Source: Centroscyllium fabricii (taxonomy: Eukaryota). Taken from it: a stretch of 64,000 nucleotides of DNA. The notes beneath the pieces were generated by a model. The model did no database searches. It was not told the DNA's origin and was given only the letters and a program-made list of their open reading frames with translations. The position numbers were made by a program, and so were the translations under genes. Of this stretch, positions 8,107 to 55,246 are shown piece by piece; position 1 is the stretch's first letter, and each line of letters starts with the position of its first letter. The DNA lies in NCBI GenBank assembly GCA_051313645.2, contig JBNRSN020000002.1:37882001-37946000 (forward strand), given 5' to 3'.

Positions 8107-9386
8107 TGTGGTAATCATATTACCATTGTATAGTTGTATTACACCACAGACCAATGTATATAGTGACTTGGTGTATTGTATATAGAACACTGTTGTTAGG
8201 CCAGGTCAGCCACACCTCTAACTCCTCCCCTCAGGTGGGAGCCTTATAGGTGAGGTCTGTCCTGCCCCCAGTTATTCTATGCCTGATGTTCGACTGGAGA
8301 CTAGCTCCATCTTTAAGCTAATAAAAGCCTATAGTTAAGGTAACTACTCGTCTTTAGTATTATTGACGATACGTCAATTTTATTAGCTTAACTTTTATAT
8401 GGACGGTCAAGCGTCAAACCAACAAGAACCAGCGTCAAACCAACAAGAACCAGAGGCGGCTATGGAAAGCCATGCAGTGAAACCGGACAGACTGGATGCA
8501 AATCGACAGGAACCAGACGCTGCTAACACCTTTGAAAAGTGGTTCGGCCTAGTCGAGGCCTACATGAGGGCCACAAAGGCAACGAGTGACAGGGACAAAC
8601 TGAAGGTCCTCTCGTCCAGAATCAGCAGCCGGGTATTCTCCTTCATCCGCGGCCTCACGACGTATACGGAGGCGGTGAAGAAATTGAAGGATTGCTACTT
8701 GCGCCCGGTCCACTGGCGACCAGACAACAGCGGCTTGGTGAGTCCAACGAACAATTTCTGTTGCCGCTTCAAGCCCTCGCTCGGGCCGTGACTACCAGCC
8801 ACATACGGCGCAGGAGGAGACGAATCTCCTCGTATGGGACGCATACGTGGCTGGAATCAGGTCCAACCAGGCCCGCGAGCGGTTACTGGAAAAGGACACT
8901 CTGTCACTGGAGGATGCGATCTCCATCTCCAACGCAGTAGACGGAGCGCGCCGCAAGCTAGAGGCATATGGCGGCCAAGGCCCACACGATACCCTTGATC
9001 ACTGGGTGGCCCCACGACAGGGTGAGAACCCCACAATAGCAGCGGCAGCTGCGAAGACGACGGCGGAGCGAAGATGCTACTTCTGCGGCCAGGGACAGCA
9101 CCCGCGAGCGAAGTGCCCCGTGAAGAGCACGACCTGCGAGCGATGCAGTAAGAAGGGACACTACGCCAGGGCCTGCAGATCGGCCCCAACGCACAGCTCC
9201 AGATCCAACAGCGCGGCCTGCGAGAGCTCCAAAGCCATCCCATGGCCCAAGGTAAACTGCCATTGCAGCGCGACCCAGCAGCGGTCCGGGGGTAAATCAC
9301 AGGCGCTTCTTTCTCCCATCCCGGTACGGTAGAGGCCGGCCACACGCACGGCACGGGCATCGCCACGCAAATGGCGGCCGAGGCCG

Positions 9387-9790
9387 GCCATGTGCGACCC
9401 CCCAACGCCGTCAACTCGCCCAGCGCGGTCCGCTGCATGCGAATCACGGGTGCCGCCATCTCGTCCACCACGGTCCGCCGCGTGCTAATCACGGGCGCCG
9501 CAATCTTGTTCTCAGCGGCCGGCCATGTGCGACTCCCCGGCGCCGCCATTTTGTCCTCAGAGGCCAGCCGTGTGCAACTCCCCGGCGTCGCCATCTTGTC
9601 CTCAGCGGCCAGCCATGTGCGACTCCTCGGCGCCGCCATCTTGCCCACCACGGCCCGCCGCGTGCGAATCACGGGTGCCGCCATCTTGTTTCCAGCGGCC
9701 AGCCATGTGCGACCCACCGGCGCCGCCATCTTGTCCACCGCGGTCGGCTGCGTGCGAACCACGCCACGGGCGCCGCCATCTTGTGCACGG
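9387..9790 (+). repeat. ~9 x 45-bp tandem array between gag and protease of element A
   Basis: Unit of the type GCCATGTGCGAC...GCGCCGCCATCTTGTCC.CAGCGGCCA, encoding 15-aa repeats like MCDSPAPPSCPQRPA. Confidence 0.85.
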
Positions 9791-10139
9791 CCCCAGCTAG
9801 CGGAGGGCCCCAATACACACACACACACACTTCGGTGTGGTGATATTGGCTATAACACCAACTATGTGTATGTACATGCCTTAGGGCGTGTCTACTCTTG
9901 CCCAGCCAGACTTGGGAGACCTGTACCTGGAGGACCTCGGGTAGGCCACGCCTCTGACCCTGGGGGTATAAAGGTCAGCACTCGTGGGTTCTGACCTCCT
10001 CTCTACTGTACTGTACTAACGATACCTGTGATCCCTTACGCTTGTTCTAAGTTTATTAAAGCCTATGTTAACTCGCTCTCTGACTCGAGTAATTGATGGT
10101 ATCAATTTAATAAACTTAGATCGTCGCTAAAATCCAAAA

Positions 10140-10976
10140 ATGGACCAAATTCAGGCTGTCCCGATCTTGGAAATTGATGCGACTGCTCCCGATGCCGAAC
10201 GCCGGTATAAACACTGGGAACAACAGCTAAGGAGCTATATCGACGAAGTGAAAAAGACCGCTTCAACTGATCAGCAGAAGAGCCGAATTCTACACTGCAG
10301 AATCAGTGCTGACCATTACCACCTCATCGAAGGGGAGTCAGATTACGAACAGGCCATGAAGAAGCTGAAAGAACACTTTGTGCCAGCAGCCAACGCTGTT
10401 CACTTAAGGCACTTGTTGACTCAGAGGGCCCAGAGCGCCGAGGAACCGGGCGCCAAATTCGTGAAAGAAATTTGTGCGCTGACCCGAGATTGCGCCCCTG
10501 GCCCCCTGACGGCGGACGAACACTACAACGAACTGGCACTGGACGCTCTGGTAAGAGGGGTATACTCCCCATATATCAGGGCCCGACTGCTAGAACGGGA
10601 TGAGCTAACGTTAAAAGAAGCAGCCTCCCTGATTGTAAATCTGGACAATGCAGATTGGAGATCCACCACGTATGGCCAACCAAGCGCGCCTACGTGGGCA
10701 TCCCCAGCCCCAACTCCTACCCCAGCGCTAACGGCAGCGGCAGGAAGAAGCAGGCCTGAAACCAACCAAAAGTGTTTCTTTTGCGGAAAAGCTAGGCACT
10801 CTAGACTGCGCTGCCCAGCCAAAGATGCTACGTGCTCGGGGTGTGGAAAGAAGGGGCACTATGCCGCGATGTGCCGCGCAATAGGGCAGAAAAAGAAGGC
10901 AGCCCCCGTCTGCAGCGGAGCGAGAGCGGCACCACGTTCCTACTACACGGAGGTAGATGACCGCGAGGGAGCATGA
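10140..10976 (+). CDS. gag: Gag of element B
   Basis: 278-aa ORF with CFFCGKARHSRLRC and CSGCGKKGHYAAMC zinc knuckles. Confidence 0.9.
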   Translation: MDQIQAVPILEIDATAPDAERRYKHWEQQLRSYIDEVKKTASTDQQKSRILHCRISADHYHLIEGESDYEQAMKKLKEHFVPAANAVHLRHLLTQRAQSAEEPGAKFVKEICALTRDCAPGPLTADEHYNELALDALVRGVYSPYIRARLLERDELTLKEAASLIVNLDNADWRSTTYGQPSAPTWASPAPTPTPALTAAAGRSRPETNQKCFFCGKARHSRLRCPAKDATCSGCGKKGHYAAMCRAIGQKKKAAPVCSGARAAPRSYYTEVDDREGA

Positions 10977-13955
10977 CGAGGCGGCGGCCATCTTGAGGCC
11001 ACAGCTAGGAGGAGCGGCCATCTTAGTTCATCACCACGAGGCAGCGGCCATTTTGAGAGTCTTCGACTTGACTCCGACCCCGAATATTCGGATGAAGACG
11101 ACTCATCAACCGTGCTGGCGTCCATCACTTTGGACCAATCAAAACCCCATGAATTGCAGAAATCAATGATGGACGTCCAGGTAAACGGACAAAACTGTAA
11201 CTGTTTATTTGATACGGGTAGTACTGATAGTTTTATTTCCCCCGAGACTGCTGACCGTCTTCACCTGTCGATCCGCCCCTGTTTAAAACGCATCGCCTTG
11301 GCGGCGGACTCAGAATCGGCGCAGGCCGTGGGGTGTTGCGTAGTATCACTTGTAGTTCGCGGAGTAAAATACTGTAATTTTAAACTGTTTGTGTTACCCC
11401 ACTTGTGCGCCTCAGTGTTATTGGGGCTCGATTTCCAGAGCCACCTGCAGAGTGTCACCTTGGCATACGGCGGCCCTCTCCCACCCCTGACGGTCGAGTC
11501 GAGTACCCCCCGTGAGCGCCCGCTTTGTGGGCTCACCACTTTACGGATCTCACCCCCGAAACTGTTCGCGAACCTCACGCCGGACTGCGCACCGATTGCC
11601 TCAAAGAGCAGGCGGTATAGTGCTGCAGACCGGGCGTTTATTGGCACCGAGGTGAAGCGACTGTTGGCAGAGGGGGTGATTGAAGCCAGCCGCAGCCCCT
11701 GGAGGGCCCAAGTAGTAGTGGTAAAGACGGGGGAGAAGAACAGGATGGTGGTCGACTACAGTCAGACCATAAACCGGTTTACACTCCTCGATGCGTACCC
11801 CCTTCCCCGGATCTCGGACATGGTAAATGAAATTGCCCAATACAAAGTCTATTCGACTATAGACCTTAAAGCGGCATATCACCAGGTCCCAATCCTCAGA
11901 GAGGAGCGCCCCTACACCGCTTTCGAAGCGGATGGTCGCCTCTACCAGTTCCTTCGGGTTCCCTTCGGAGTGACGAACGGAGTGTCCGTCTTCCAGAGGG
12001 AAATGGATAGAATGGTAGACGAACACGGGCTCAGGGCCACCTTTCCCTATCTAGATAACGTCACTATCTGCGGCCACTCGGACGAGGACCACGACGAGAA
12101 CCTCGGTAAATTTTTGAAAACAGCCAAATCCCTGAATTTGACATACAACAAAGAAAAATGTGTTTTCCGCACCAGACGCCTGGCTATTTTGGGCTGTGTG
12201 GTGGAAAACGGGTTAATCGGCCCGGACCCTGACCGAATGCGCCCGCTGATTGAGTATCCCCTTCCCAAGACACCCAAAGCTCTAAAGCGGTGCATGGGGC
12301 TGTTCGCGTATTACGCGCAGTGGGTCCCAAAATTTGCGGACAAAGCCCGGCCTCTGATGCGGGCCACTGTTTTTCCCCTGTCGGCAGCGGCACTAACGGC
12401 TTTTAAGCAACTTAAAGCCGATATAGTAAAAGCTGCAATGTCCGCCATCGATGAGGACGTGCCTTTCCAAGTGGAGAGCGACGCGTCCGACTTCACCCTG
12501 GCGGCGACCCTGAACCAAGCAGGCAGACCTGTTGCCTTCTTTTCCCGTACCCTCTCGGGCTCGGAAGCACGACATTCCTCCGTGGAAAAAGAGGCCCAAG
12601 CCATTATCGAAGCGGTGCGCCACTGGAGACACTACCTGGCCGGTAGAAAATTTACCCTGCTCACCGATCAGAGGTCGGTAGCATTTATGTTCAGTAACAC
12701 ACAGCGGGGAAAAATTAAGAACGATAAGATCTTGAGGTGGAGGATCGAATTGTCCACCTTTAATTATGATATTTTGTACAGGCCAGGTAGACTCAACGAG
12801 CTGTCCGATGCACTGTCCCGCGGGACCTGCGCCAGCGTGCAGGCGGGCAGACTGCAGGCTCTGCATAATAACCTCTGCCACCCGGGGGTCACCCGCTTCT
12901 ATCATTTTATCAAAGCCCGCAATCTACCGTATAGTATTGCGGAGGTTAGGGAGATAGTCAGGGATTGTCCGGTCTGTGCGGAATGCAAGCCGCAGTTTTT
13001 CCGACCGGACAAGGCACACCTGATTAAGTCCTCTCGGCCCTTCGAACGCCTTAGTATCGATTTTAAGGGCCCACTCCCGTCCACCGACAGGAATGTCTAC
13101 TTCCTCACAGTCGTGGACGAATACTCCCGTTTCCCATTTGCGATACCCTGCACTGATATGACTGCTGCCACAGTCATCAACGCCCTCGCCCCGATATTCG
13201 CAATATTCGGCTTCCCCTCATTCATACACTCTGACCGGGGGTCTGCTTTTATGAGCGACGAACTGCAGCAGTTCCTACTCGCGAGAGGAATCTCGTCGAG
13301 CAGGACAACGAGCTACAACCCCCGGGGCAATGGCCAAGTAGAGCGCGAGAATGGCACTGTCTGGAAGGCGGTCCACCTGGCACTCAGGTCCAGGGGCCTT
13401 CCAGCCTCACGCTGGCAGGCGGTTCTCTCGGACGCTCTACACGCCGTACGGTCGCTTCTTTGTACAGCGACCAACGCAACGCCGCACGAACGGATGTTTT
13501 CCTTCCCCAGGAAGTCCGTCTCGGGGATGTCGCTGCCATCGTGGCTAGCCTCCCCGGGCCCAGTACTGTTGCGGCGCCATGTACGGCACTATAAGACCGA
13601 CCCACTGGTCGACAGGGTACTCCTCCTCCATGCTAACCCGCAGTACGCCTATGTGGAGTTCCCTGATGGCAGGAAGGACACAGTCTCTATTAAAGACCTG
13701 GCGCCCGCAGGCGCCCCTGCGACCACAACTCCGCCCCCACCCCCCTTCCTCTCGTCGTGGGCCCAGCCGGCACCTACCACATCGCAGCCCGTGCCCAGCC
13801 CCCCACCGACCCATACCGCCGTATTCCCTGGTGACGCGCTGCTAACGTATATTCCTTCGGCTTCCCCAGGTACCGATACCGAACGGCAGGACCAGCAGCT
13901 CAGACGGTCGTCGAGTGTGCGACGCCAGCCAGACCGCCTGGTCTGCTCAATGTGA
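10977..13955 (+). CDS. pol: Pol (PR-RT-RH-IN) of element B, in frame with gag after one TGA
   Basis: LFDTGS protease, SPWRAQV...YLDN RT, ESDAS RNase H, H-x4-H...CPVC and D,D,E integrase. No stop between 10977 and the annotated ORF 11112-13955. Confidence 0.93.
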   Translation, partial: RGGGHLEATARRSGHLSSSPRGSGHFESLRLDSDPEYSDEDDSSTVLASITLDQSKPHELQKSMMDVQVNGQNCNCLFDTGSTDSFISPETADRLHLSIRPCLKRIALAADSESAQAVGCCVVSLVVRGVKYCNFKLFVLPHLCASVLLGLDFQSHLQSVTLAYGGPLPPLTVESSTPRERPLCGLTTLRISPPKLFANLTPDCAPIASKSRRYSAADRAFIGTEVKRLLAEGVIEASRSPWRAQVVVVKTGEKNRMVVDYSQTINRFTLLDAYPLPRISDMVNEIAQYKVYSTIDLKAAYHQVPILREERPYTAFEADGRLYQFLRVPFGVTNGVSVFQREMDRMVDEHGLRATFPYLDNVTICGHSDEDHDENLGKFLKTAKSLNLTYNKEKCVFRTRRLAILGCVVENGLIGPDPDRMRPLIEYPLPKTPKALKRCMGLFAYYAQWVPKFADKARPLMRATVFPLSAAALTAFKQLKADIVKAAMSAIDEDVPFQVESDASDFTLAATLNQAGRPVAFFSRTLSGSEARHSSVEKEAQAIIEAVRHWRHYLAGRKFTLLTDQRSVAFMFSNTQRGKIKNDKILRWRIELSTFNYDILYRPGRLNELSDALSRGTCASVQAGRLQALHNNLCHPGVTRFYHFIKARNLPYSIAEVREIVRDCPVCAECKPQFFRPDKAHLIKSSRPFERLSIDFKGPLPSTDRNVYFLTVVDEYSRFPFAIPCTDMTAATVINALAPIFAIFGFPSFIHSDRGSAFMSDELQQFLLARGISSSRTTSYNPRGNGQVERENGTVWKAVHLALRSRGLPASRWQAVLSDALHAVRSLLCTATNATPHERMFSFPRKSVSGMSLPSWLASPGPVLLRRHVRHYKTDPLVDRVLLLHANPQYAYVEFPDGRKDTVSIKDLAPAGAPATTTPPPPPFLSSWAQPAPTTSQPVPSPPPTHTAVFPGDALLTYIPSASPGTDTERQDQQLRRSSSVRRQPDRLVCSM

Positions 13956-16900
13956 CCTGGCATGAACAGGCGGCCACAATTTTTTGGAACATCTCGGAAC
14001 CTTTGTAAATACTGTCTGTACATATGTTAGGTATTGTTTGTGCCCCCCCTGGTACTGAAATTCTTTAACAGGGGGTGAATGTGGTGATATTGGCTATAAC
14101 ACCAACTATGTGTATGTACATGCCTTAGGGCGTGTCTACTCTTGCCCAGCCAGACTTGGGAGACCTGTACCTGGAGGACCTCGGGTAGGCCACGCCTCTG
14201 ACCCTGGGGGTATAAAGGTCAGCACTCGTGGGTTCTGACCTCCTCTCTACTGTACTGTACTAACGATACCTGTGATCCCTTACGCTTGTTCTAAGTTTAT
14301 TAAAGCCTATGTTAACTCGCTCTCTGACTCGAGTAATTGATGGTATCATTCGGCCTCAGCCATTGTCGACCAGGCTAGGCCGCACACCCTATCAAATTCC
14401 ATTATGGGGATTAAAGTGGACGGTCACATCACTAACTGCCTGTTCGACACCGAAAGCACAGAGAGCTTCATCCACCCCGACACAGTGCGGCGCTATGCAC
14501 TGCGGACCCTGCCCACGCACTACCAAATCTCCCTTGCCTCAAAGTCCCACACGGCGGACGTCACCGGCTACTGCTCCGTCACGCTCACGGTCAGGGACTG
14601 CGTGTACCATAATTTTAATCTGAACATCCTCCAGCAGTTGTGCGCCCCAGTCTTACTGGGTCTGGATTTCCAGTGTCACCTGAAGAGCGTGACAATGGAG
14701 ATCGGCGGGACCCTGGCCCCCCTCACCGTCAGTAGCCGGGACAATCCCTTCTTAAAGCGGAGCCCGACCTGCGGCCTATACACCCTGAAAGTCGACCCCC
14801 CCCTCACTGTTCGCCAACCTCGACCCCAACTGCAAACCTATTGCTACCAAGAGTCGGCGTTACAGTGCAGGGGACCGGGCATTTATCAGGTCGGAAGTCG
14901 GGCGTATGCTGCAAGAGGGGATAATTGAGGCCAGCACCAGCCCCTGGTGGGCCCAGGTCGTAGTGGTTAAGACCGGCGAAAAACTGCGGATGCTGATCGA
15001 TTACAGCCAGACGATTAACCGCTACACTGGGCTCGACGCCTACCCCCTTCCCCGCATCTCGGATATGGTCAACCAGATCGCCAGTATAAGGTTTTTTCAA
15101 CAATCGACCTTAAGTCGGCGTATCACCAACTCCCAATCAGGAAATCCGACCGCCAGTACACCGCCTTCGAGGCGAACGGTCAGCTCTACCACTTCCTCCG
15201 GGTCCCCTTCGGCGTGACCAACGGGGTGTCGTTATTCCAAAGGGAGATGGACCATATGGTTGACCAGAACGGGTTGCAGGCCACTTTCCCCTACCTGGAC
15301 AACGTGACCATCTGCGGCCATGATCAGCAGGACCACGATGCCAACCTTGCCAAATTTCTCCACACGGCGAAACGGCTCGATCTCACATACAACAAAGACA
15401 AGTGTGTCTTTAGTACAGATCGGCTCGCCATCCTCGGATACGTGGTGGAAAACGGGGTCCTTGGCCCCGCCCCACAGCGTGTGCGCCCCTTACAGGAACT
15501 GCCCATACCTCAGAACCCCAAAGCCCTGAAGAGATGTCTGGGATTTTTCTCCTATTACGCACAATGGGTTCCCCAGTTTGCGGATAAGGCCAGACCGCTC
15601 CTCAAGGCTGACGTATTCCCCCTCTCAGTAGAAGCCCAAACGGCATTCGCCCTGATTAAGGAAGACATCATCAAGGCGACCATGCACGCCGTTGATGAGT
15701 CCATCCCTTTCCAGGTGGAGAGTGACGCTTTGGACTTTGCCCTTGCCGCCACCCTGAATCAGGCAGGCAGGCCCATAGCGTTTTTCTGCCGGACCCTACA
15801 GGGACCCGAAACTCGCCACTCTGCAGTGGAAAAGGAGGCCCAGGCCATCGTGGAGGCCGTGCGCTACTGGCGTCATTACCTGGCCGGTAAGCGTTTTACC
15901 CTGCTCACCGACCAACGGTCGGACGCGTTTATGTTTAACAATAAACAAAAGGGTAAAATCAAGAATGATAAGATCCTGCGGTGGCGGTTCGAACTCTCGA
16001 CTTACGAGTACGACATTCTTTACCACCCAGACAAACTCAATGAACCCCCGGACGCACTGTCCATGGGAACATGCGCCAGCGCCCAGCTGGACCGGCTGAA
16101 GGCCCTCCATGATCGCCTCTGCCACCCGGGTGTCACCAGACTCGCCCATTTCGTTAAATCCCGTAGCCTAAACTACTCCATCACGGAGATCAAGGCTATG
16201 ACCAGAGACTCCCCTGTCTGCGCCGAGTGCATACCCCACTTTTTCAGGCCAGACACGGCGCACGTCATCAAGGCCACCTGCCCCTTTGAACATCTGAGCG
16301 TGGACTTCAAAGGTCCCCTCCCCTCCACTGACCGCAACTCGTACTTCCTCACGGTCGTGGACGAGTTCTCCCGCTTTCCCTTCGCCTTCCCCTGCCCAGA
16401 TATGATGAGCGCAACGGTGATAAGACACTTCACCACGCTGTTCGCCATTTTCGGTCTCCACAGCTACATCCATAGCGACTGGGGGTCGTCGTTCATGAGC
16501 AACGAACTGCGTCAGTTTCTGCTTCAGAACGGGGTTGCCTCAAGCAGAACGACCAGTTACAACCCCCGGGGGAACAGCCAGGTAGAAAGGGAGAACGGGA
16601 TCATCTGGAAGGCGGTCAACCTGGCCCTGAAGTCCAGAGGCCTTCCAGTGTCCCGTTGGCAGGAGGTCCTCCCAGACACGCTCCACTCCATCCGCTCTCT
16701 GCTGTGTACGGCTACAAACGCTGCACCTCACGACCTATTATTTTCCTTCCCCAGGAAGTCGACTTCGGGGACATCACTCCCACCATGGCTCACGACGCCG
16801 GGGCCGGTCTTACTTAGGAATCATGTCCGCGGCCATAAGACCGTCCCCCTGGTGGAGAGGGTACAGCTGCTGCATGCCAACCTGCAGTATGCCTACGTGC

Positions 16901-17593
16901 AATTCCCGGACGGGCGCGAGGACACAGTTTCCATCAGAGACCTGGCGCCCGCTGGGAGCACTAGAACGGAACCTCCGGTCGAGCCTCAGCCCGACCAACC
17001 ACCACCCACCGAACACTGACCTGCATAACAACCAACTTCCACCGAATACTGGCCTACATACACACACACACCGGAGCCCTCGACGCTATCGGCCGACAAC
17101 CCAGGGCCGGATGCCACGCTGCAAGCACTGTTGCCGGAGGATCCGACCCCGTCACCACAACCGGCACCAGCGCCGCTACCGGAACTCCGGCGGTCGGCAC
17201 GACAGACACGACCACCGGAAAGACTTATAGAGCATTGCTGGTACGGACACAAAATTGTTTTTTGCTCTGTTCTGTTCCATTCACCCCGCCGGACTCATTT
17301 TCAAAGAAAGGGTGAATATGGTAATCATATTACCATTGTATAGTTGTATTACACCACAGACCAATATATATGTAGTGACTTGGTGTATTGTATATAGAAC
17401 ACTGTTGTTAGGCCAGGTCAGCCACAACTCTAACTTCTCCCCTCAGGTGCGAGCCTTATAGGTGAGGCCTGCCCTGCCCCCAGTCATTCTGTGCCTGATG
17501 TTCGACTGGAGACTAGCTCCATCTTTAAGCTAATAAAAGCCTGTAGTTAAGGTAACTACTCGTCTTTTGTATTATTGACGATACATCACCCAT

Positions 17594-18197: not shown

Positions 18198-19093
18198 TGA
18201 TAGCGTCGTCTTGTACCTCCCGTTCCCTCAGCAAGGCAAAGAAAGGAACAGACATAATTTAAAGTAAAATAGTGAACTTTTATTGCAGCATCAAAGACTT
18301 TTGAGGTTCAGCTTTGATGAACGTAGTTTGTAACTTTGAAATGTTAACTAACTATTTTCTACTTTTCAAATATTCGCAAACATAAGTAGTTTTGGAAAAA
18401 AATTGTAAACACTTTTAAGTGACTTTTCTGTTTTCTTCGTGCAATAAAGACAAGATGGAAACTACCTATTTTCTAAATTGCAAATATTTTTTCAAAAAAA
18501 AGTTTACATTTTTTTCAAAGTGACTAGAGTCTGTACTTTTTAAACAAACAGGTTGCATACACTTTCAGTCACAAATATATATTTCAATAAAAAAAGCAAA
18601 TACAACATTTAACATGCAAATAAAATGAAAAATTAAACAATTGAATGATTTGCCCCCTAAAATCTGTGCCTGAGGGTCAAAGGAGGTGCGTTGTGCAAAA
18701 GGTGACACCCTAACGTCTCCTGCGCTTTCCCCCTCCTCATGACCGCAGCCCTCTGCTGCCACTAGAAAGGCCCCTGTGTGCCATCTTTTGCCCTTCAGCA
18801 ATTGCCTCCTGACAGCCTTGCTACTGCTGCAAGGCAACGTTTGCTTGCATCACGACTGGCTCTTGGGCCCGCACTGTTTCTGCCTGGGAGCAGGTAAGGG
18901 CGGTTCTACGGGGGTCAAAGTAATGCTGGCAGAAAGTGGTTCAAGCAACTGCAAGAGTCGAACGAGAGACTCATTAATTAGATTACGTTGTTTTCCCAAC
19001 TGCAATGCTATCTGATTAAGTGAATTGCCAAGATTATCCATTCCCTGCCTGATGGTGGCAATAGAGTCAACGTTCTTCTCAGTAAGAGAACAC

Positions 19094-22000
19094 TGTAGCG
19101 CCGGCAGGCCTAGGAACCACACGTGAGCCAGAGCTAGAGAAAACACAGCTTTATTACACTAAGCAAAACAAGAAAGAGAGTGAACCACTCGCAACAAGCG
19201 TATTTAAACAGTCCTGCGGTTGGTGACGTCATCGCGTCGGCCGACGTGATGATGTCGTCGCGTCACCCGGATGAGCGGGGCTTTGCTCCGCGGAGTCCCC
19301 GTGGCGGATTCGATGTCTCAGTGGGCGTGCCGCCACACAGCTCCCCCCAGAATCCGTCCGGGAGGAATAGTGACAGAGTCTATGTTGTGCCGTTGGGGTG
19401 GCCGGATGATGCGGCCGGACCGTGTTGTCTGTTGCTCCTGGTTCTGCGGTGGAGTGTGGGCGGGTTTTGTTGCGGGAGGGCGACCGCGTTGTGGTGGTTG
19501 TGCGGGTACCGTTGTCTCACCCGCTATCACGTGCGCCGGCTTGTGCCGGTCTATTGTCACAGTGTCAGTCCTGTTGCCCATTTGTAATTCAAAAGCTTTA
19601 GCTCCCGCCCGAAGCACTCTGTAGGGGCCATCGTATGGTGGCTGTAGTGGAGATCGGTGTCCGTCGCGCCGGACGAACACGAATTTCGCGTTTTTAATGT
19701 TGTCCGGCACCCGAGCTGCCGGCTCTCCGTGCCGGGCCACTGGTAGTGGCTGGAAAGCTCGTGCCGGGTTGGCGAAGTCTTTTAAATACTGGTCGGCTGA
19801 CCAGGGAGCATTGGGCTCAGCCAGGAACTCGCCCAGCACCGTTAAAGTTTGGCCGTAGATGAGCTCCGCTGCCGAGCCGTTAAGGTCTTCTTTGACTGCC
19901 GAGTGCAGCCCGAGGAGAACCCATGGAAGGCGGTCGGTCCACGATGCGTCTTTAAGTGTGGCTCGTAGTGATGCCTTCATGGAGCGGTGGAACCGTTCGC
20001 ATAGGCTGTTCGCCTGTGGGTGGTATGCGGTGGTTCGGTGTAGTGTAACCCCGAGGTCGCGGGCGATGGCCGCCCATAATGCCGACGTAAACTGGGGTCC
20101 TCTGTCGGAGGTGATGTCTGTGGGCACGCCGAAACGGTCGACCCAGGTGGCGATGAACGCCCTGGCCAAGTCCGTGGTGCCGGTGGCGGTGAGGGGGACT
20201 GCTTCTGGCCAGCGGGTGTTGCGGTCGACCATGGTCATTAGGTGTGTGTGGCCCCGGGATGGCGGTAGTGGCCCGACGAGATCGATATGAACGTGGTCAA
20301 AGCGTCTGGCCGGCACTTTAAAAGTTTCCAGCGGTGCCCTAATGTGCTTATGCACTTTGGAGCGCTGGCAGGCTATGCAGGAGCTGGCCCAGGCGCGGAC
20401 GTCCTTGCGCAGGCCGCGCCATACGAATCGGGCCGAGATTAATTTGATGGACGCGCGGGCGCCGGGGTGGGACAGGTCGTGCAGGGTCCTAAATATGTGT
20501 CGCCTCCAAGCGTGGGGTACGACTGGCCTGGGTTGCGGCAAGGATACGTCGCAGCAGACGACGGTGGCAGCGGGGCCGTGCGTGATATTGGCCAAGTGGA
20601 GGCCGGGGAGATTGGTTGCTGCGTTGAGCAGGTCGGGGTCGGCCAGCTGGTCCGCGGCCAGCTGGGCGTAATTGACCGCCATTTGGGCGGCGTTAATGGT
20701 GCGGCGTGAGAGGCAGTCAGCGACCACGTTGTCGCGGCCGGAAATGTGCTGGATGTTGGTTGTAAATTCCGACAAGGCCGCGAGTTGGCGCTGCTGCCTG
20801 GCCGACCAGGGTTCAGCGACCTTAGCCATCGCAAACATGAGTGGCTTTTGGTCGCTGAAGGCTGTGAAGTGGCGGCCCTCCAAGAGGAAACAAAAGTGTC
20901 GCACTGCCAGATGGAGAGCGAATAGCTCCCTATCGAAGGCACTGTATTTAACCTCTGGGGGCCGGAGTTGCCGGCTGAAAAAGGCCAGGGGCTGCCACGA
21001 GTTGCCGGTCCACTGCTCAAATACGGCCCCGACCGCATGGTCGGAGGCGTCGGTGGTGAGGGCTACTCTGGCGTTTGGCCTAGGGTGGGCTAGGAGGGTG
21101 GCGTTTGCCAGGGCGGTTTTAGTTGCGGTGAAGGCGGTGGCGGCGTCGGCCGTCCACTCGACCGCAGCCTTGTTGGACTGCCCGCGGGTGGCCTGGTATA
21201 AGGGGGCCATGAGAGCGGCTGGACCCGGGATAAAGCGGTTATAAAAATTAACCATGCCTAAGAATTCCTGCAGCCCTTTAATGGAGTGCGGGCGGGGTAA
21301 TTCCTGTACCGCCTGCACCTTAGAGGGCAGGGGTATGGCCCCTGTTTTGGAAATGCGGTGGCCGAGGAAGTCAATAGTCTCGAGGCCGAATTTGCACTTG
21401 GTGGGGCTTAAGATAAGGCCGTGTTCGGTAAGGCGCTGGAACAGGGTCCTGAGGTGCAGGAGGTGTTCCTGGGGGGAGGTGCTGGCCACGAGGATGTCGT
21501 CTAAATAGACGAAGATGAACTTCAAGTCCCGTAGGACTGAGTCCATGAGGCGCTGGAAGGCCTGGGCCGCGTTTTTAAGGCCGAAGGGCATTCTAAGGAA
21601 CTCGAAGAGCCCGAAGGGGGTAATAACGGCCGTTTTGGGAATGCCCGCCGGGTGTACGGGCACCTGGTGGTAGCCACGCACCAGGTCGATCTTGGAAAAG
21701 ATCGTACAGCCCGCTAATCTGGCGGAAAAATCCTGGATGTGGGGTACGGGGTACCTATCCGGGGTAGTGGTGTTGTTAAGGCGGCGGTAGTCGCCGCAGG
21801 GGCGCCAACCTCCGTCGGGCTTGGGGGCTATATGGAGTGGAGAGGACCAGGGGCTGCTGGAGCGGCGGATTATACCGAGTTGCTCCATGGTGCGGAACTC
21901 GGTGCGCGCGATCTCCTGCTTGGCCGGGTCGAGCCTACAGGCGTGGGCATGGACGGGAGGGCCTGTGGTCATAATAAAATGCTCCACCCCGTGTTTGGCC

Positions 22001-23528
22001 TGGCGGGCGGTGAACGTGGGGTTGGTTAGGGCGGGGAACTCTGCCAGGAGTGTGCCATAGGCATCGGAGTCCCGGGAGCGGCATTGGGCTGCCGCGTGGG
22101 CCAGGAGTGCGGGCTCTGTGGAGCATGGGATGGTCGTCATAGTATTTATGTTGACCAAGCGGCGCCGGGTTACGTCGACCAGTAGGCCGTAGGCGCAGAG
22201 GAAGTCTGCCCCGAGGAGGGGTGAAGTGACCTGGGCCGTTACAAAATCCCAGGTGTACGCGTGGCTAGCAAGGGTAATTGTCAGCTTGCGGGTGCCGTAC
22301 GTTTTTATATTGGAGCCGTTGGCCGCCGCTAGTGGCGGGCCCCGGGTGCCTTGTTTGGTTTCTGCGGGGGAGGCTGGCACGATGCTGTGCTGCGCGCCTG
22401 TGTCGCAGAGGAACCTGAGGCCTGTGCCGCTGTCTGTGGCAAAGAGCAGTGCTCCTGTGTGGCCTACAGACATGGTGGGGGCTGAGTTGGGCCGTGGCTT
22501 GAACGCGCATGGCTGGACGCAGCGGTGCGCTTTGTGGTCGAACCGCGTGTGGTAGTAGCTAGAGGGACGCGGTTGTCTAGGTGGGCGCGGGGCCCTAAGT
22601 TCAGGCGTAAAGTTATGCCTGGGGGGTGATTGGCTGCGCTCTACCGATGCGGAGTTAGGGTCGCACGTGTTTGCGCGGGTGCGCTGCGCCTCCATGAGCC
22701 TGTCAGCTTCCTCTCCGAGCTCGTCATCGCTCCGATGGCCAAGGGCCGCCAAGGCCGGTCTGATGGCGCGGGGCAGTTTAAGGAGGAAGACGGTGCGGAA
22801 GAGGGAGGCCGGGTTGGGTGTGAGCGCTTGCATCTGACCTAAGAGGTCTGATGGGTCTGCGTCCCCGAGTTCGGGGAGGTCGAGGAGCTGGCAGTCGCGC
22901 TCAAATTGGGAGGGGGTAAATTTTTTTATAAGCGCGGCCTTAAGTGCTTCATACCTGCCTGCGATGGGCACACGCTGTATTTTTGACCACATCCGATCGA
23001 TCGTCGTCTGTGGTAGGGCTGAGAACACCAGGTCGTATCGGTCGTCCCCCTGAATGCCATGTGTGCGGCAGCTGGTCTCAATGCACATGAACCAGGCCGC
23101 TGGCCGTTGCTCCCAGAACTCGGGTAGAGTTAGTCCACGTCTGGCGTTCTGGCCAGCTCCCTGCGTTCGTGGAGCTTGGTTCCTTGGGTTTACCATGTTT
23201 TCTTAAAAAAGTTCTTTGGCTGGTGGTCCCAGATCCTGCGGCAGCTTTTCTTCTCTAGAAGTCGTTCCAGTTCGGGGTCACCACTGTAGCGCCGGCATGC
23301 CTAGGAACCACATGTGAGCCAGAGCTAGAGAAAACACAGCTTTATTACACTAAGCAAAACAAGAAAGAGAGTGAACCACTCGCAACAAGCGTATTTAAAC
23401 AGTCCCGCGGTTGGTGACGTCATCGCGTCGGCCGACGTGGTGACTTCGTCGCGTCACCCGGATGAGCGGGGCTTTGCTCCGCGGAGTCCCCGTGGCGGAT
23501 TCGATGTCTCAGTGGGCGTGCCGCCACA
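19094..23528 (-). mobile_element. CsRn1-clade Gypsy element C
   Basis: LTRs 23285-23528 (5') and 19094-19337 (3'), TSD ACAC, PBS TGGTGACCCCGA (tRNA-Trp type), PPT GGGGGGAG. Confidence 0.95.
19318..23196 (-). CDS. gag-pol: Single Gag-Pol polyprotein of element C (1292 aa)
   Basis: LPEFW..P.AWF Gag, LCDTGA protease, SPWSSPLH / [10 protein letters not shown] / YLDD RT, RNase H, HHCC and DDE integrase, PPYDGPY (GPY/F motif). Confidence 0.93.
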
Positions 23529-25022: not shown

Positions 25023-27485
25023 TGTATTGTTTTCTATGTGGGTTCAACGACGACACATTGATGAAGGAGAATGTTTGTTCATCTAACGTATGTTCAAGTA
25101 ACTTACTGATTTGCATGAGGCTTTTACAGGGAGACTCCATCTTGGAGATCAATCCTATACTGCAACTCAACTAACTTGCTTCTTGTCACATGCCCTCTGC
25201 TGGCAAGGCATAGATAATCAAACAGGCAAATATGATCACTATTTGCTAATATCATTACATCTCCCTTTCTTAAAACAAAAGTATCTTACTTTTCACTAAC
25301 AACATGTTTTCTTTGTATTACTCTGCAATTTTAACTGTAACACTTAATGAACTTACATTATCATTATTATTATCATTATTAAGGTTTTTTAACCTTGTTT
25401 TGTGTGTTCACATGAAATATGTAAATACACTAGAAGTTGAAGAGTGAATAAGATAACACAACTTCATTCTATAACAAGAGTCCTTAAATTTGCTCTATGA
25501 GTCTCTCAGGAGGCTTCACATGTCTTGAGGATCTTCTGATTTATTGTCCTTGAATCTGAGTTGTTGCTTCAGATGATGGGTTCTCAGCTGTGTAATCAAG
25601 TTGTTCAACAGTATCAGTCTTTCGTCCTGCTGTGGTTGGTCCCATGAGAAGATCCCAATGTTTTCTTCAAAGAACAGCACCTTCATCTGTCTGAATGGTG
25701 TATGATCTTGGTTGGACTTCACTAAGGACAGTTCCCTTCTGAGTCCATATGTATGTTTTGTTTTTGAGCCTTACTTGGTCACCAGTGTGGAGTTCAGGTA
25801 GGTTTTGTGTTCCTCTGTCAAAGTAGTACTTTTGCTTTTCTTTTTGTTGTTCTTTGAACTTCCTCACTTTCTCCCCCTCTTTGTTTTCAGGAGGTTCTCC
25901 AGGATGGGTAGATTTGATCTTAGCATACGTCCCATAAAGAGTTGGGCTGGTCTCACAGGCTATTAAACCTAATATGGCCTGCACATCCTTTGGCACCATG
26001 ATGAATGCTAGCATGTGCTCTCTGGCCTTGTGTGTCACTTTGACAATGCATTTTCCTTGCACTGGTATATCAGTACCTGAGTATCCTGTCACTTTCATTT
26101 TTGTTCCATGTATCTTTGGTTTGGGTCTAATTTTCTTAAAATCAGTCTCTGATATCACATTAACTTGTGCTCCAGTATCCAATTTAAATGAAATGTGCAT
26201 GTCATTCACTTTTAATGTCAACATCCAGTCTCTTTTATCTCTTTTGTTTTCAGACACAATGTCCACATAGAACTCTTCTATCTCCCTTTCATTTACTGCA
26301 TGGACCTTGCTTTGTTGCGCTTGGTTATTACAGCAACAGGCATAATGGTTGTTTTTGTTGCAACTATTGAATGTTTTACCATATGCTAGACACTTTTTTG
26401 GTAGGTATTGTGTACCACATCGACTACATGGCTTTTGATTGCCCCTTCCATTTTTGTTCGCTGGCCACGCCTCTTTTTTCACGTTGGCGCTCTTTTTGTT
26501 AAATGGTTTGTGTCCGTTCTTTCTCACTGCATCCACGTTGCAGCTACTGTCACTGAACAGCTCCTTTGCCTGCGACTTCACAGTCTCTGTAACCCTACAG
26601 AGTGCTATCGCTTTTCCCAGGTCTAGATTTTGCTTTCTTAGCAGTCTTTCCCTCAGACTATTATCTGGAATACCACACACAAGTCTGTCTTTTACCAACG
26701 AGTCTGCCAGTCCACCAAATTCACACGTTTTGCTTCTGCTTCTCAGTCCAGTCACATACTGATCAATAGTTTCTCCCATTTTCTCTACACATGTGAAAAA
26801 TCTGTGCCTCTCAAACATCACGTTACGTTTAGGTATGCAGTATGCCTCAAACTGTTCCATTATTTTATCCAGCTTCATTTTGTCTCCATCAGCAGTGAAT
26901 GTGAGGTTATTATACACCTCCAGCGCTTCATCACCCACGACATGTAAGAACACTGACGCTTTCATTTTATCACTTTTCTCGTCAGCTCCAATTGCCGCTA
27001 AATACAACTCAAAACGTTCTTTGAACCTGTTCCAATTTTCAGCCACATTACCTGTCAACTGAAGCTTCGCCGGTGGGTGTAACCCTTCCATTTTTCATTT
27101 AGTTAGCTATTCTCCAAAGGTAAGTAATGATGTTCTCTTTTGGCTTGCTGATATGTGGAGAGCTGATTTCGCTGGGTAGCTTACTTGCCACGACTAGTTG
27201 CTAACTTCAGATTTTTCCTCTTTATCTCCTTCAATCACTTCTGACACCATGCATTGTTTTCTATGTGGGTTCAACGACAACAGATTGATGAAGGAGAATG
27301 TTTGTTAATCTAACGTATGTTCAAGTAACTTACTGATTTACATGAGGCTTTTACAGTGAGACTCCATCATGGAGATCAATCCCATACTGCAACTCAACTA
27401 ACTTGCTTCTTGTCACATGCCCTCTGCTGGTAAGGCATAGATAGTCAAACAGGCAACTATGATCACTATTTGCTGATATATTTCA
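25023..27485 (-). mobile_element. Internally deleted Mag-type Gypsy element E
   Basis: LTRs 25023-25259 and 27250-~27485, probable TSD CAAAT, PBS TGGTGTCAGAAGTG (tRNA-Leu type), PPT AAGAAAGGGAGA. Confidence 0.88.
25667..27091 (-). CDS. Gag plus protease of element E joined to integrase C-terminal sequence (RT, RNase H and IN core deleted)
   Basis: GNVAENWNRFKERFELY Gag, FKLDTGAQVN protease, then KQKYYFDR..LPELHTGDQVRL..PRSYTI. Confidence 0.8.
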   Translation of the reverse strand: MEGLHPPAKLQLTGNVAENWNRFKERFELYLAAIGADEKSDKMKASVFLHVVGDEALEVYNNLTFTADGDKMKLDKIMEQFEAYCIPKRNVMFERHRFFTCVEKMGETIDQYVTGLRSRSKTCEFGGLADSLVKDRLVCGIPDNSLRERLLRKQNLDLGKAIALCRVTETVKSQAKELFSDSSCNVDAVRKNGHKPFNKKSANVKKEAWPANKNGRGNQKPCSRCGTQYLPKKCLAYGKTFNSCNKNNHYACCCNNQAQQSKVHAVNEREIEEFYVDIVSENKRDKRDWMLTLKVNDMHISFKLDTGAQVNVISETDFKKIRPKPKIHGTKMKVTGYSGTDIPVQGKCIVKVTHKAREHMLAFIMVPKDVQAILGLIACETSPTLYGTYAKIKSTHPGEPPENKEGEKVRKFKEQQKEKQKYYFDRGTQNLPELHTGDQVRLKNKTYIWTQKGTVLSEVQPRSYTIQTDEGAVL

Positions 27486-28707
27486 CAAATCTCTTTAAAA
27501 CTATTTAAAATTCTTCCAATTCCTGTAAAAGTCTTTAAAAGTTTCTAAATTTCACAAAAGATCAATACAAATACAAATAACCATCTTACCATGTTGTTCC
27601 ACAGTGTACCAAGGTCTTGCAGTCTATGAAAGAATATAGGGGGCATGTCCTATGCTAATGCGACCTTATAGGGTGGGTCTCCCATACACTCCGCCCTGGA
27701 GGCTACGCGCAGGCTGTGTTCCTGGGCGGCATTACGTCAGACGCTGCCCGGGAGTAATCTTCAAAAAAACGGATGTCCATGCTAGCCAACAGCTCACCAG
27801 CTGGTGTGCAAGGTAAGTACAGGTTGGAGGCTTACACATGCGGGAAGCCTACAACTCGAATTTCTGGGTCAATATACCTGTACCCAGAGTGGTTTGTGTA
27901 GTCACAGACAAATTATTCTAAGAGCTTTTGAAAACTACAAAAGAGGAAATAGCAGAAACCCTGACCATCCATTTTTCAATCCTCTCTGGCTTCAGGTGTG
28001 GTGCCGGAGGACTGGAGGACTGCTAATGTGGTGCCCTTGTTTAAAAAGGGAGAAAAGGATAGACCGAGTAATTACAGGCCAGTCAGGCTAACCTCAGTGG
28101 TGGGAAAATTATTGGAAAGAATTCTGAAGGACAGGATAAATCTTCATTTAGAAAGTCACAGATTAATTAACGATAATTAGTGTGAATTTGTTAAGGGACG
28201 GTTGTGTCTGACAAGCTTGATTGAACTTTTTGAGGAGGTGACAAAGGGGGGTAGATGAGGGTAGTGCATTTGATGTAGTGTATATGGACTTTAGCAAGGC
28301 TTTTGATAAAGTTCAACATGGCAGACTGGTCAGTAAGTTAAAAGCCCATGTGATCCAGGGCAAAGTGTCAAGTTGGATTCAAAACTGTCTCAGAGGCAGG
28401 AAGTAGAGGGTAATGGTTGATGGGTGTTTTTGTGACTGCAAATCTGTTTCCAGTGGGGTTCAGCAGGGCTCAGCATTAGGTCGCTTGCTTTTTGTGGTAT
28501 ATATCAATGATCTAGACTTGATTATAGGGGGTATGATTAAGAAGTTTGCAGATGATCCGAAAATCGAATGTGTGGTTGATACTGAAGAAGGAAGCTGTAG
28601 ACTGCAGGAAGATATCAATAAATTGGTCAGGTGGGCAGAACAGTGGTAAATGAAATTCAATCCTGAGAAGTGTGAGGTAATGCATTTGGGGAGGGCTAAC
28701 AAGGAAA

Positions 28708-29103
28708 CATAGAAACATAGAAGATAGGAGCTGGAGTAGGCCATTCGGCCCCTCGAGCCCGCTCTGCCATTCAGCGAGATCATGGCCGATCATTCAAACC
28801 CAGCACCCCGCCCTGCCCACCCCCCATATCACTATCGAGCCTGCACCGACATATATCCCACCCTATCCCCATAACCCCACACATTCAATCCCCCTAACAC
28901 TAGGGATCAATTTATCCTGGCCAATCAACCTAACCTGCACATCTTTGGACTGTGGGAGGAAACCGGAGCACCCGGAGGAAACCCACGCAGACACGGGGAG
29001 AATGTGCAAACTCTACACAGATAGTACCCGAGGCTGGATTTGAACCCGGAGTCTCCAGAGCTGTGAGGCAACAGTGCTAACCACTGTGCCACCGTGCCGC
29101 CCT
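28708..29103 (-). mobile_element. HE1/V-SINE-like tRNA SINE
   Basis: tRNA-like head GGCGGCACGGTGGCACAGTGGTTAGC, core TGCGTGGGTTTCCTCCGGGTGCTCCGG, LINE-type (TTCTATGT)n tail, probable TSD AGGAAA. Confidence 0.9.
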
Positions 29104-37334: not shown

Positions 37335-37654
37335 ACCCCCTCAGGCAATCCTCAGTGACATCTTCCCACTGGCTCCAGAGGTGTCACCTGGAAAGCTTCC
37401 TGCCTCCCTTGGGGTGGAACAGGATTTCCATCCTTCTATTCGCCACCTGGATCAGCGCCTCCGACGCGGCATCAGAGAATCTTCTTAAATCGGGGAAACC
37501 TCCCGTTTGCCTGCAGCCAGAGTGCACCTCCCCTTTACGAGGTGCTGGCTGCCTTTATGTAGCATTAGAGAGGCAAAATATCTGTGCCCCCCCCACCGAA
37601 AAAAATTGGGCTTATAGTTGATGAATAACGCTGGCTGCATGCCTGAATCATTTT

Positions 37655-38036
37655 AACACAGAAACACAGAAATACAGAAGATAGGAGCAGGAGTAGGCCA
37701 TTTGGCCCTTCGAGCCTGGTCCGCCATTTCGATGAGATCATGGCTGATCATCCAAACCCAGCATCCCCCTCCTACCCTCTCCCCATATCCCCCGACACCC
37801 CCAACTCTAAGAACTATATCTCACACACATAGTCATGGGCAATTTTTAGTCTCTCCAATTCACCTAACCTGCATGTCTTTGGGTGGCGGGAGGAAACCGG
37901 AGTACCCGGAGGAAACCCACACGAACACGGGGAGAACATGCAAACTCCATGCAGAGAGGTCCCGGGGCCAAGCAGGATTCGAACCCAGGAGCTCCTTATT
38001 GCGAGGCAGCAGTGCTAACCACTGCGCCACCGTGTC
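37655..38036 (-). mobile_element. HE1/V-SINE-like tRNA SINE (different subfamily)
   Basis: tRNA-like head, V-type core and LINE-type tail. Confidence 0.85.
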
Positions 38037-38264
38037 ATCCAGGTAACAAATTTAACCTGGGGCATGGGACCACTGGGACAGAAGCGTGCAGTGCGCGCCC
38101 GCACCCTGGGCACCCGCTACTAGGTGCGATCGAAAATAGGTCTGTGAGCTTGACATCTGCAGGAAGGTGAACAGACAGTTGAGATTTAACTACTTCACAC
38201 AGATAGCAGTGAATGTGTGGAATGAATTGGCCACCCCGGCACTGGAAGTGGAGAGAAAAGAAAA

Positions 38265-48222: not shown

Positions 48223-48450
48223 TTATGTATGTTATGTAACCACTAGGAACTGGACTGAGACTACACACACTCATTGTATGGATCGATGACCGGCTGAAGA
48301 GGCTGGAAGTTGTGTCTGAGCCACAGTGGGGAATTCAGGGCACAGAGGGGAAAGAGAGGGTCTAGTCCATCCAGTCCTCTTACATTATTTTATTCTTCCA
48401 TTTTATTGACAAGCCACTGTGAAGGGTCCAGGTCCATAGTGCAAGATATC

Positions 48451-48850
48451 GGCACGGTGGCGCAGTGGTTAGCGCTGTTGCCTCACAGCACTAGAGACCC
48501 GGGTTCAAATCCAGCCTCGGGTACAATCTGTGTGGAGTTTGCACATTCTCCCTGTGTCTGCGTGGGTTTCCTGCGGGTGCTCCGGTTTCCTCCCACAGTT
48601 CAAAGATGTGCGGGTTAGGTTGAATGGCAAGAATAAATTGATCCTTGGTGTTAGGGGGATTGAATATGTGGGGTTACGGGGATAGGGTCGGATATGTGTC
48701 GGTGCAGGCTCGATTGGGATCAAGAGATATGGGGACAAGGCAGGGACAGGGTACTAGGTTTGGATGATCAGCCATGATCTCATTGAATGGCGGAGCAGGC
48801 TCGAAGGGCCAAATAGCCTACTCCTGCTCCTATCTTCTATGTTTCTATGT
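48451..48850 (+). mobile_element. HE1/V-SINE-like tRNA SINE
   Basis: Same family as 28708-29103. Confidence 0.9.
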
Positions 48851-51048: not shown

Positions 51049-51447
51049 GGGCGGCACGGTGGCATAGTGGTTAGCACTGTTGCCTTACAGCACTGGAGAC
51101 CCGGGTTGAAATCCAGCCTCGGGTGACTATCTGTGTGGAGTTTGCACATTCGCCCCGTGTCTGCGTGGGTGTCCTCCGGGTGCTCCGGTTTCCTCCCACA
51201 GTCCAAAGATGTGCGGGTTAGGTTGATTGGCCAGGATAAATTGACCCTTAGTGTAAGGGGGATTGAATATGTGGGGTTACGGGGATAGGGTGGGATATGT
51301 GTTGGTGCAGGCTCAATAGGGATCGAGGGATATGGGGAGAGGGCAGGGGCGGGGTACTGGGTTTGGATGATCAGCCATGATCTCATTGAATGGCGGAGCA
51401 GGCTCGAAGGGCCGAATGGCCTACTCCTGCTCCTATCTTCTATGTTT
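51049..51447 (+). mobile_element. HE1/V-SINE-like tRNA SINE
   Basis: Same family as 28708-29103. Confidence 0.9.
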
Positions 51448-51839
51448 CAATGTCTCTATACACAATTTCCCACCATATCCCTCATTCCTTCTTTTTTCAG
51501 AAGCCCTTCTGGTTGTCTCTTGAATTCTACCCTGTGTTCCAATGGCTTGCCCTGGTAACTTATTCCGCGACTCTATTACCACTTGGCTAAAAAATGTTCT
51601 GCCTATTTTCCCTTCTTACTCACGAGATACTCATTTTTAACTTGCATTTCCGAGGTTTCAGTGCAATGAGCAATTTGTAGTGTTTTCAGGTCTCATTTCA
51701 GGTTTACAGCATTTGTCTTTTTTCTTTGTTATCATTTCTCAACAGGGTTCATTGTTAATAATCTTCTTTCGCTTCCATGTAGAAAAACTGGGTTTCATGC
51801 TACCCTGCAAATTAAGAGCGATTTAATTACCATCTTAAT

Positions 51840-53953: not shown

Positions 53954-55246
53954 TTGTGCGAGGTCGGTTTGGCCCGTACCTGCCCGTGAGCGGTTTCGAG
54001 GTGCTCCCACTCCCCCTCCTGATTCTGGACACCGGGCTTATTACCAGACTACTGGTGGTGCAATAACACAGGTAGACAGACGACTTAGGTGAGTCAAATG
54101 AGTTTAAAAGGTTTTAATGAGAAGAGAAATCATGAATGGTACGCTACAGGTAAAACGATACAATCACTAGACAAAGGTACAGATTTGTGGAACACACGAC
54201 ACATCGAGGGATACAAATGACATGATACACCCCTTAACCTTACTACCCACCCTACTATGCCTATACCTAACCTAGGTCAATTACCAAGGGTCTGATTTCA
54301 TGCTCACCAGCCTAGGTTTAAATGCAACGAGTTTTGAGATTTCGCGTCGGTCTTTCAGGCTTCCGTCCTCACGTCTGCTGTGGGCTGTGACGTGGACGTC
54401 TCACGCAAAGGTTTTACGTCCCTCAAGGCTGGGCGCCTCGTGGCCTCCCGACAGTCTTAGTACGAGCTGGTCTTCGTGTCGTAGTACGAGCTGGTCTCTG
54501 TGTCGTAGTACGAGCTGGTCTTCGTAGAAATCCTGTGGTATTTCGCCGATGAACACCTGGCGAATGATTACTGGGGGCCCGTTTTGCGAAGCTCGCCCCA
54601 GGCACCCTCGAATGCCGGCTCTTTTCTTTAGGATGTCATACACAATGGGAATCACCCAGGTGCACCTTATTCTTTCTCCGGTCCGTACTGGATCATATTA
54701 AAATGTCTCTTTCGTTCCTGGCCTTCATTTGGGCCCGGCCTCGTGATATGGCCTGGGCAATTCCAGGGACTTTCAGTGCGGACCGGATAGACTGTCTTTA
54801 CGGAGCTCGATTCAACTCTTTGTCTTGGCTGGAATTCTCAGAATTCGACTGCCTGCCTCCCGATGTCTGCCTGCTCGTTTCTGGAAAACAAGTTGGAGGA
54901 GCTCTCCTTCCCGGTGCTGAACGAATTTCTTTATGACTGACGTATCGTCAATTAACTCAATAAAGCCAAAGACGAGTAGTGACCTTAACTACAGGCTATT
55001 ATTGACTTACATAGGAGCTATACTCCGAACGAACAACAGGTACAGAATGAACGGGTCCGGTCAGTCCTCACCTATAAAGGGCCTCACCTGGGGGAGGAGT
55101 TAGAGGTGTGGCTGACCTGGCCCCACGACAGTGTCACAACATCTTATGCACCCGACCGCTATGTACAGTGGTAATATTGGCACCAATATTACAGTGGTAA
55201 TTTATATACATATATATGGTTACCACATTCACCCCTTCTTGAAAAT

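Follow-up and report, generated by a model that had tools for sequence, protein, structure and literature searches.

A Ty3/gypsy clade without a chromodomain in Centroscyllium fabricii that likely primes reverse transcription from an internal piece of its own LTR

The window, i.e., the complete stretch of 64,000 nt of Centroscyllium fabricii DNA that was analyzed, contains a Ty3/gypsy LTR retrotransposon of 4.5 kb (element B, 9836-14348, plus strand), which is nested in a related element, A (LTRs at 8109-8376 and 17319-17588). Another related element, F, is located on the minus strand at 54938-59795. B has the TG...CA LTRs, the short target duplication, and the PR-RT-RH-IN order of Ty3/gypsy elements, and its best match to a solved structure was Ty3 RT; general LTR features are outlined in the consulted sections of PMC3601003. 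The LTR pair of B is 100% identical across 269 bp, and TTCGG is present as target duplication on both sides. Contigs from four runs were consistent with an LTR that ends at 10104; they were uninformative about transcript starts and ends. The features of B and the corresponding sites of A and F are as follows.

9836-10104, plus strand: 5′ LTR of B, TG...CA, 269 bp, delimited by repeat comparison; the contigs diverge after 10104
9967-9972, plus strand: TATAAA in the 5′ LTR of B
10046-10060, plus strand: LTR arm, candidate self-primer, with the ATTAAA poly(A) hexamer at 10055-10060, followed by GCC
10091-10107, plus strand: U5-end inverted repeat AATTGAT-GGT-ATCAATT, the outer 2 bp of which compete with the duplex
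10105, plus strand: lone A separating the LTR end from the primer site (A in 56 of 56 elements)
10106-10120, plus strand: primer-binding position, exact reverse complement of 10046-10060, without TGG
10140-10976, plus strand: gag part of B with two tandem CCHC knuckles; an in-frame TGA at 10974-10976 ends this copy
10977-13955, plus strand: pol part of B, continuing the gag frame, with protease, RT (YLDN), RNase H, and integrase, without chromodomain
14070-14079, plus strand: purine-rich tract AGGGGGTGAA preceding the 3′ LTR
14080-14348, plus strand: 3′ LTR of B; its arm copy at 14290-14304 has no downstream primer site
8313-8391, plus strand: element A, arm 8313-8326, LTR end 8376, site 8378-8391 (14 bp)
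59487-59572, minus strand: element F, arm 59572-59560, LTR end 59501, site 59499-59487 (12 of 13 paired, one mismatch)

Additional repeats were noted in the window. A and F carry 45-bp tandem repeats, seven copies each, between gag and protease (9335-9784 and 58144-58541). Two C-type gypsy elements with a DUF7041 gag and a TGG-led primer site are found at 19091-23528, where a single frame of 1294 aa is open, and at 62427-64000. Element D (25023-27479) is a short LTR element of 2.5 kb with a protease and a TGG-led site and without a long pol frame. A dispersed 400-bp repeat family, which we take to be SINE-like, as in sharks and rays, occurs at 28700-29100, 37650-38040, 48450-48850, 51050-51460, and 60470-60880.

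The B family is very young and large, with thousands of near-identical copies. The 15-mer of the arm had 14,556 exact matches in the genome, about three per full copy, versus 19 for a control, and all 30 fetched loci, one of which was B itself, showed 0-3 differences per 365 bases. The frame of B stops after 281 codons, and a hand count found one frame of 1274 aa in 75 of 150 copies among the matches listed. Stop codon readthrough between gag and pol was therefore rejected, as about half of these copies are a single open frame. The view of the initial annotation that B is the youngest copy and the best experimental substrate was not supported: because of the thousands of near-identical copies and its in-frame stop, B is no special copy.

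The arm at 10046-10060 reads TCTAAGTTTATTAAA, and 10106-10120 is its exact reverse complement. The sequence thus confirmed a perfect 15-bp pairing that had been noticed before, and the use of the variant hexamer ATTAAA with a matching change in the primer site was borne out as well. In B, moreover, the A-run and the T-run are shortened in step; its family has three of each base, and most relatives in this genome have four of each. From the LTR limits, which are given by the identical LTRs and the TTCGG flanks, it follows that the second arm begins 1 nt after the terminal CA. When the 5′ region of B was folded in silico in four windows, the duplex was predicted with probabilities of 0.83-1.0 per pair, in line with the earlier expectation; the folding z-score was -2.86, and 2 of 200 shuffles were equally good. 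An Rfam scan of 9800-10250 yielded no family over the primer site and two sub-threshold miRNA matches on a simple repeat.

The occurrence of this arrangement was analyzed in a sample of 80 ten-kb stretches of the genome and the window. The sample contained 68 gag starts, 66 of them with enough upstream DNA, which comprised 49 B/F-like and 17 C-like elements. The LTR ends were set from the partner LTRs, independently of pairing. Six of the 49 B/F-like elements were left out (three second-round matches without a first-round gag match, one with a weak gag, and two without CA at the partner end), and two had no anchor, L106 and L035, which is split by a nested insertion. Among 80 metagenome loci, 23 had long direct repeats, of which 16 were taken and their ends read by hand. 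One of these, L139, had no anchor; it showed a 14-bp match at an offset of 2 without the hexamer, and its LTR is cut by the contig ends. The 3′ LTRs of L117 and L118 are also cut, so that the ends assigned to them depend on the pattern itself. We revised the anchor rule a single time, treating L111 as an exception. The final set consisted of 56 elements in 21 LTR clusters, 41 from the same genome (11 clusters) and 15 from metagenomes (10 clusters). Viral contigs yielded two distant loci, which were of no use. One family has a pair of near-identical gag starts at L038:6231-7551, in head-to-head orientation and about 850 bp apart.

The spacer base was A in all 56 elements, and none of them had TGG at the primer site. 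All 13 positions were paired in 45 elements and at least 12 in 51, with L055, L101, L155, L184, and L186 below this value. RCC directly followed the arm in 54 of 56, a number that has to be read with the fact that the anchor rule itself seeks such a motif. The C-type controls had a TGG-led site and a self-match of only 6-8 nt in all 11 mappable cases (of 17). In summary, the match of arm and site is a clade trait, with a fixed register (the site 1 nt after CA, the last base of the arm being the A that precedes RCC) and no tRNA-type site.

Next to the register, the sequences of arm and site were compared between clusters. Among the 21 cluster representatives, cognate pairing was 0.989 versus 0.671 for cross-cluster pairing and 0.19-0.29 for slid registers. 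None of 10,000 permutations reached the cognate score, a count that is not a probability because copies and clusters are related. The 728 pair cells comprised 706 Watson-Crick pairs, 2 G-U pairs, and 20 mismatches, and 28 distinct perfect 13-mers were found. Compensatory changes numbered 29 in 19 disjoint nearest pairs; by hand count, 19 of these changes were transversions. The same pairs contained 20 non-compensatory differences, eight from one copy with a short deletion, which we read as decay after insertion. Resolved by position, pairing was 0.95-1.00 through position 13 (1.00 at 13) and 0.62 at position 14 (cross-cluster 0.31). Helices that are under selection alone usually change via G-U intermediates. 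The G-U-poor and transversion-rich change observed here therefore fits a site that is re-copied from the primer rather than a helix maintained by selection only. Combined with a register anchored to the end of the LTR and the absence of a tRNA site, this pattern of change points to priming.

The overlap of the arm with a poly(A) signal was frequent and not universal. AATAAA or ATTAAA was present within the arm in 49 of 56 elements (9 of the 15 metagenome elements), and a canonical hexamer was absent from the arm in seven. As these seven lack it and L116 carries AATAAA outside the arm, the arm does not have to coincide with the poly(A) signal. In the folding model of B, the hexamer was paired at 0.96-1.0 in the 5′ context, while in the 3′ context four of its six bases were predicted to be mostly unpaired (0.11-0.13). 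Masking of the 5′ poly(A) signal is thus a plausible side role in this model, and not the cause of the register.

The initial annotation had also proposed that the duplex encloses a 7-bp hairpin at the end of U5. The inverted repeat AATTGAT-GGT-ATCAATT was located at 10091-10107, but the two structures are not separate, because they share 10106-10107. In B, duplex and hairpin can coexist only up to 15 bp plus 5 bp or 13 bp plus 7 bp. In the model, the 7-bp hairpin alone has -2.6 kcal/mol and would be only 1-2% populated in B, the loop being predicted to fold otherwise. The corresponding stem ascribed to A and F, ATTGACG-ATA-CGTCAAT, was indeed found at both 5′ LTR ends, but it is lost in the 3′ LTR of A. 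The wider claim that a U5-end hairpin is kept with different sequence held in part: among the 11 clusters of this genome, the stem surpassed shuffles (P <0.05) in 8, and its inner pairs differ among them, with T-A, C-G, and G-C at one place; but it is weak, overlaps the duplex, and reached this level in 0 of 10 metagenome clusters. A clade-wide requirement for the hairpin was rejected for the latter reason and because the L064 cluster lacks it. In the families of this genome, it might instead serve as a dispensable stem next to the junction. In F (59501-59560) and in the L034, L038, and L059 clusters, a further stretch of U5 is complementary to the hexamer arm over 8-9 nt (P up to 0.03); it is absent in B and is a possible alternative fold in those families.

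The position of the arm relative to the promoter was used to locate the putative primer within the RNA. In 40 of 41 elements of this genome, the 3′ end of the arm is preceded by a TATA-like motif at a distance of 79-94 nt; most metagenome relatives are without any TATA. Transcription starting at the arm would need an AT-rich 8-mer at a position where one was present in 1 of 11 clusters of this genome. In B, transcription would begin near 9997, at TATA +30. A chromovirus control was taken from the same genome because the 20 long, distant homologues that were scanned contained no chromodomain. Twelve loci with a Tf2-type SH3 domain were fetched, five of them with an LTR pair, and a chromodomain was found in all four control elements scanned. 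Three of the five (L196, L201, and L202) have an 11-nt arm, a 1-nt spacer, and an arm start 30 nt after TATTTAAG; the arm of L193 is decayed, and the LTR of L198 fell outside the comparison. Judged from these sequences, two self-priming lineages would so share this genome, the B group and chromodomain-type gypsy elements. With the arm end 79-94 nt after TATA in the B group versus an arm at TATA+30 in the control, the primer of the B group is predicted to be internal, ending about 50-65 nt inside the RNA.

Several observations were made alongside. In L196, L201, and L202, the U5/leader complement TGGGTCCA with TGGACCCA is present. In 17 of the 21 clusters, positions 11-10 of the arm are AG, in many cases preceded by a run of pyrimidines, and B has TACTAAC about 30 nt upstream (10013-10051). 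The arrangement resembles a 3′ splice site, but the other families do not have this branch motif.

Taken together, self-priming in one form or another is very probable for B, and this reading is well supported by the covariation, the fixed register, and the absence of a tRNA-type site. As to its form, B, a Ty3/gypsy element without chromodomain, likely self-primes from a 13-15-nt LTR piece that is predicted to be internal to its RNA. By analogy with Tf1, the 5′ RNA would fold back and place the arm onto the primer site, and the RNase H of the element would cut directly 3′ of the arm, at 10060/10061 in B. The new 3′-OH would copy U5 and then the remaining short stretch of R. Later, plus-strand synthesis would copy the last ~13 bases of the primer back into the primer site, and we propose that both arms would thereby stay Watson-Crick perfect. 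As a side benefit, the fold would hide the poly(A) signal in the 5′ LTR only. A primer of 50-65 nt leaves the limit of 13 paired nt unexplained, and a second cut or a stop must be assumed. Extended further, a large, animal-wide gypsy clade would have invented self-priming independently of Tf1/sushi, with a defined 13-nt primer that is excised from the interior of its RNA and is its own poly(A) signal, one fold that starts reverse transcription and silences 5′ polyadenylation, and a site that is rewritten in each cycle; this combination is possible, but we regard it as somewhat doubtful.

Two other forms of self-priming have to be weighed against an internal arm at the 5′ end. The arm could be supplied by the 3′ copy of R, from the same RNA molecule or from a partner. 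This would account for the covariation equally well, the arm is present in both LTRs, and a longer R overlap would be left for strand transfer; moreover, the 3′ arm has no local primer site and, in the model, the partly free hexamer described above (four of six bases mostly unpaired, 0.11-0.13). However, the 5′ arm lies 45 nt from the site and is predicted to pair with P near 1, so that it would have to be displaced, and the excerpts of the literature examined contain no precedent, which makes this variant unlikely. Alternatively, transcription could begin at the arm, and the primer would be the first 13 nt of the RNA, as in the plain architecture of Tf1. A start site would give just the sharp stop of pairing at 13 nt, and the 1-nt spacer is common to the B group and the chromoviruses. 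The promoter spacing argues against it: the TATA-like motif is 79-94 nt before the arm end in 40 of 41 elements of this genome, the AT-rich box that would be needed is missing in 10 of 11 clusters, and the arm of the chromovirus control is exactly at TATA+30. An arm at the start of the RNA is therefore improbable.

It is also conceivable that the LTR does not supply the primer. If the duplex only hid the 5′ poly(A) signal against early termination and something else primed, the arm hexamer in 49 of 56 elements and its predicted pairing in the 5′ context (0.96-1.0) and partial release in the 3′ context would be explained. But masking needs neither the 1-nt register at the LTR end nor pairing free of G-U, the duplex persists where the arm is without a hexamer, and the element would be left without any primer site; we consider this quite improbable. 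Priming by a host RNA, a tRNA half or another small RNA, with an incidental LTR match, has a parallel in the half-tRNA priming that PMC6317226 describes, in the part consulted, for copia lineages. It is nevertheless highly improbable, as each of the 28 distinct perfect 13-mers tracks its own LTR, no Rfam family covers the site, and, of the first 100 matches to the 15-mer in the genome, most are at the LTR/site spacings of 60 and ~4,240 nt. An internal arm at the 5′ end thus remains the reading that we prefer.

The affiliation of B was analyzed with its homologues. Sharks and rays contributed the closest named ones, with 71-80% across RT-RNase H, followed by cnidarians, a damselfly, and a whipworm (about 60-65%); a cluster look-up of the homologues gave no useful clade name. 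In a quick RT tree of 71 of 144 RT matches, retained after thinning, the B group comprised 53 rows with an SH-aLRT of 99, and chromodomain-type rows were apart. No chromodomain was detected in B or in any of five long homologues (E 0.1). B shares with Tf1/sushi a primer site complementary to its own LTR RNA, but its classification as a Tf1/sushi chromovirus was rejected because it has no chromodomain and its RT is apart from chromoviruses in the quick tree. Two CCHC gag knuckles are present in B and in 74 of 77 long homologues. The RT motif of B (pol, 10977-13955) is YLDN, not YxDD; Asn was found in most of 119 homologues, and both forms are scattered over the tree. The leader helix of the pretzel described for Tf1, in which leader and U5 pair, was sought as Watson-Crick runs and was not detected in 21 of 21 clusters (all P >0.1), and a U5-side stem was found in 8 of the 21 clusters overall (P <0.05).

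The B clade is abundant in this genome, with thousands of copies in the B family alone, and its relatives occur in sharks, rays, cnidarians, an insect, and a nematode. If priming from an internal arm is true, tRNA-free priming would be commoner in animals than the consulted parts of reviews suggest, self-priming would have arisen again by another route, and RNase H would have to cut at a defined junction inside a capped RNA. Such elements would presumably also escape control by tRNA fragments directed against primer sites. The many natural variants of arm and site make the rules of priming testable with short RNAs. From the known self-priming of Tf1, the B-group design would differ by its internal arm, usually overlapping the poly(A) signal, in a non-chromovirus clade. 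In the titles, abstract openings, and excerpts of the literature examined, we found no account of such a design for animal elements other than chromoviruses; one may still be in print, for instance in subscription journals or Repbase reports.

Among the known systems, several lineages are candidates for the classification of B. The Cigr-1 clade (Ciona, molluscs) is, like B, an animal non-chromovirus Ty3/gypsy lineage (PMC6238403), and the YLDN motif suggests B as a candidate member, as far as the consulted parts of PMC6238403 and PMC3670739 go. By knuckle count alone, B would also fit the Mag or Micropia/Mdg3 lineages, which have two CCHC gag knuckles as well (PMC2577118); on its own, this number is not diagnostic, as several lineages have two.

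In the sections of the reports consulted, self-priming has been shown for Tf1 and is inferred for Tf1/sushi, Tcn1, and TAR (PMC6317226, PMC4600332, PMC5341516, PMC2864245, PMC6934838, PMC5006619). For TAR (copia) and Tcn1 (plants), it was predicted from sequence alone, on the basis of ≥10 matching bp that begin 0-5 nt beyond the LTR (PMC6317226); these lineages show that self-priming arose more than once. In contrast to B, these elements belong to another superfamily or to the chromoviruses, and the excerpt of PMC6317226 mentions neither a poly(A) signal nor an internal arm. Tf1 and Tf2 of Schizosaccharomyces pombe, Tj1, Tosmo, Tcry1, and Tf1/sushi are described as having, like B, a primer site that matches their own LTR, no tRNA site, and a site-adjacent stem (PMC7175516, PMC10085805, PMC4600332). 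The Tf1 ‘pretzel’ includes a stem adjacent to the PBS (PMC10085805), and the U5-end stem of the B family resembles one of its two site-adjacent helices as depicted there. The chromoviruses of this genome and the B group have the 1-nt spacer in common. B differs from Tf1/sushi in that it has neither a chromodomain nor a Tf2-type SH3 domain, belongs to a separate RT clade, and lacks a detectable leader helix. In Tf1, the RNA's initial 11 bases anneal to the primer site and RNase H cleaves between nucleotides 11 and 12, according to the consulted part of PMC7175516, whereas the primer of the B group would comprise 13-17 nt, is predicted to be internal, and overlaps the poly(A) hexamer.
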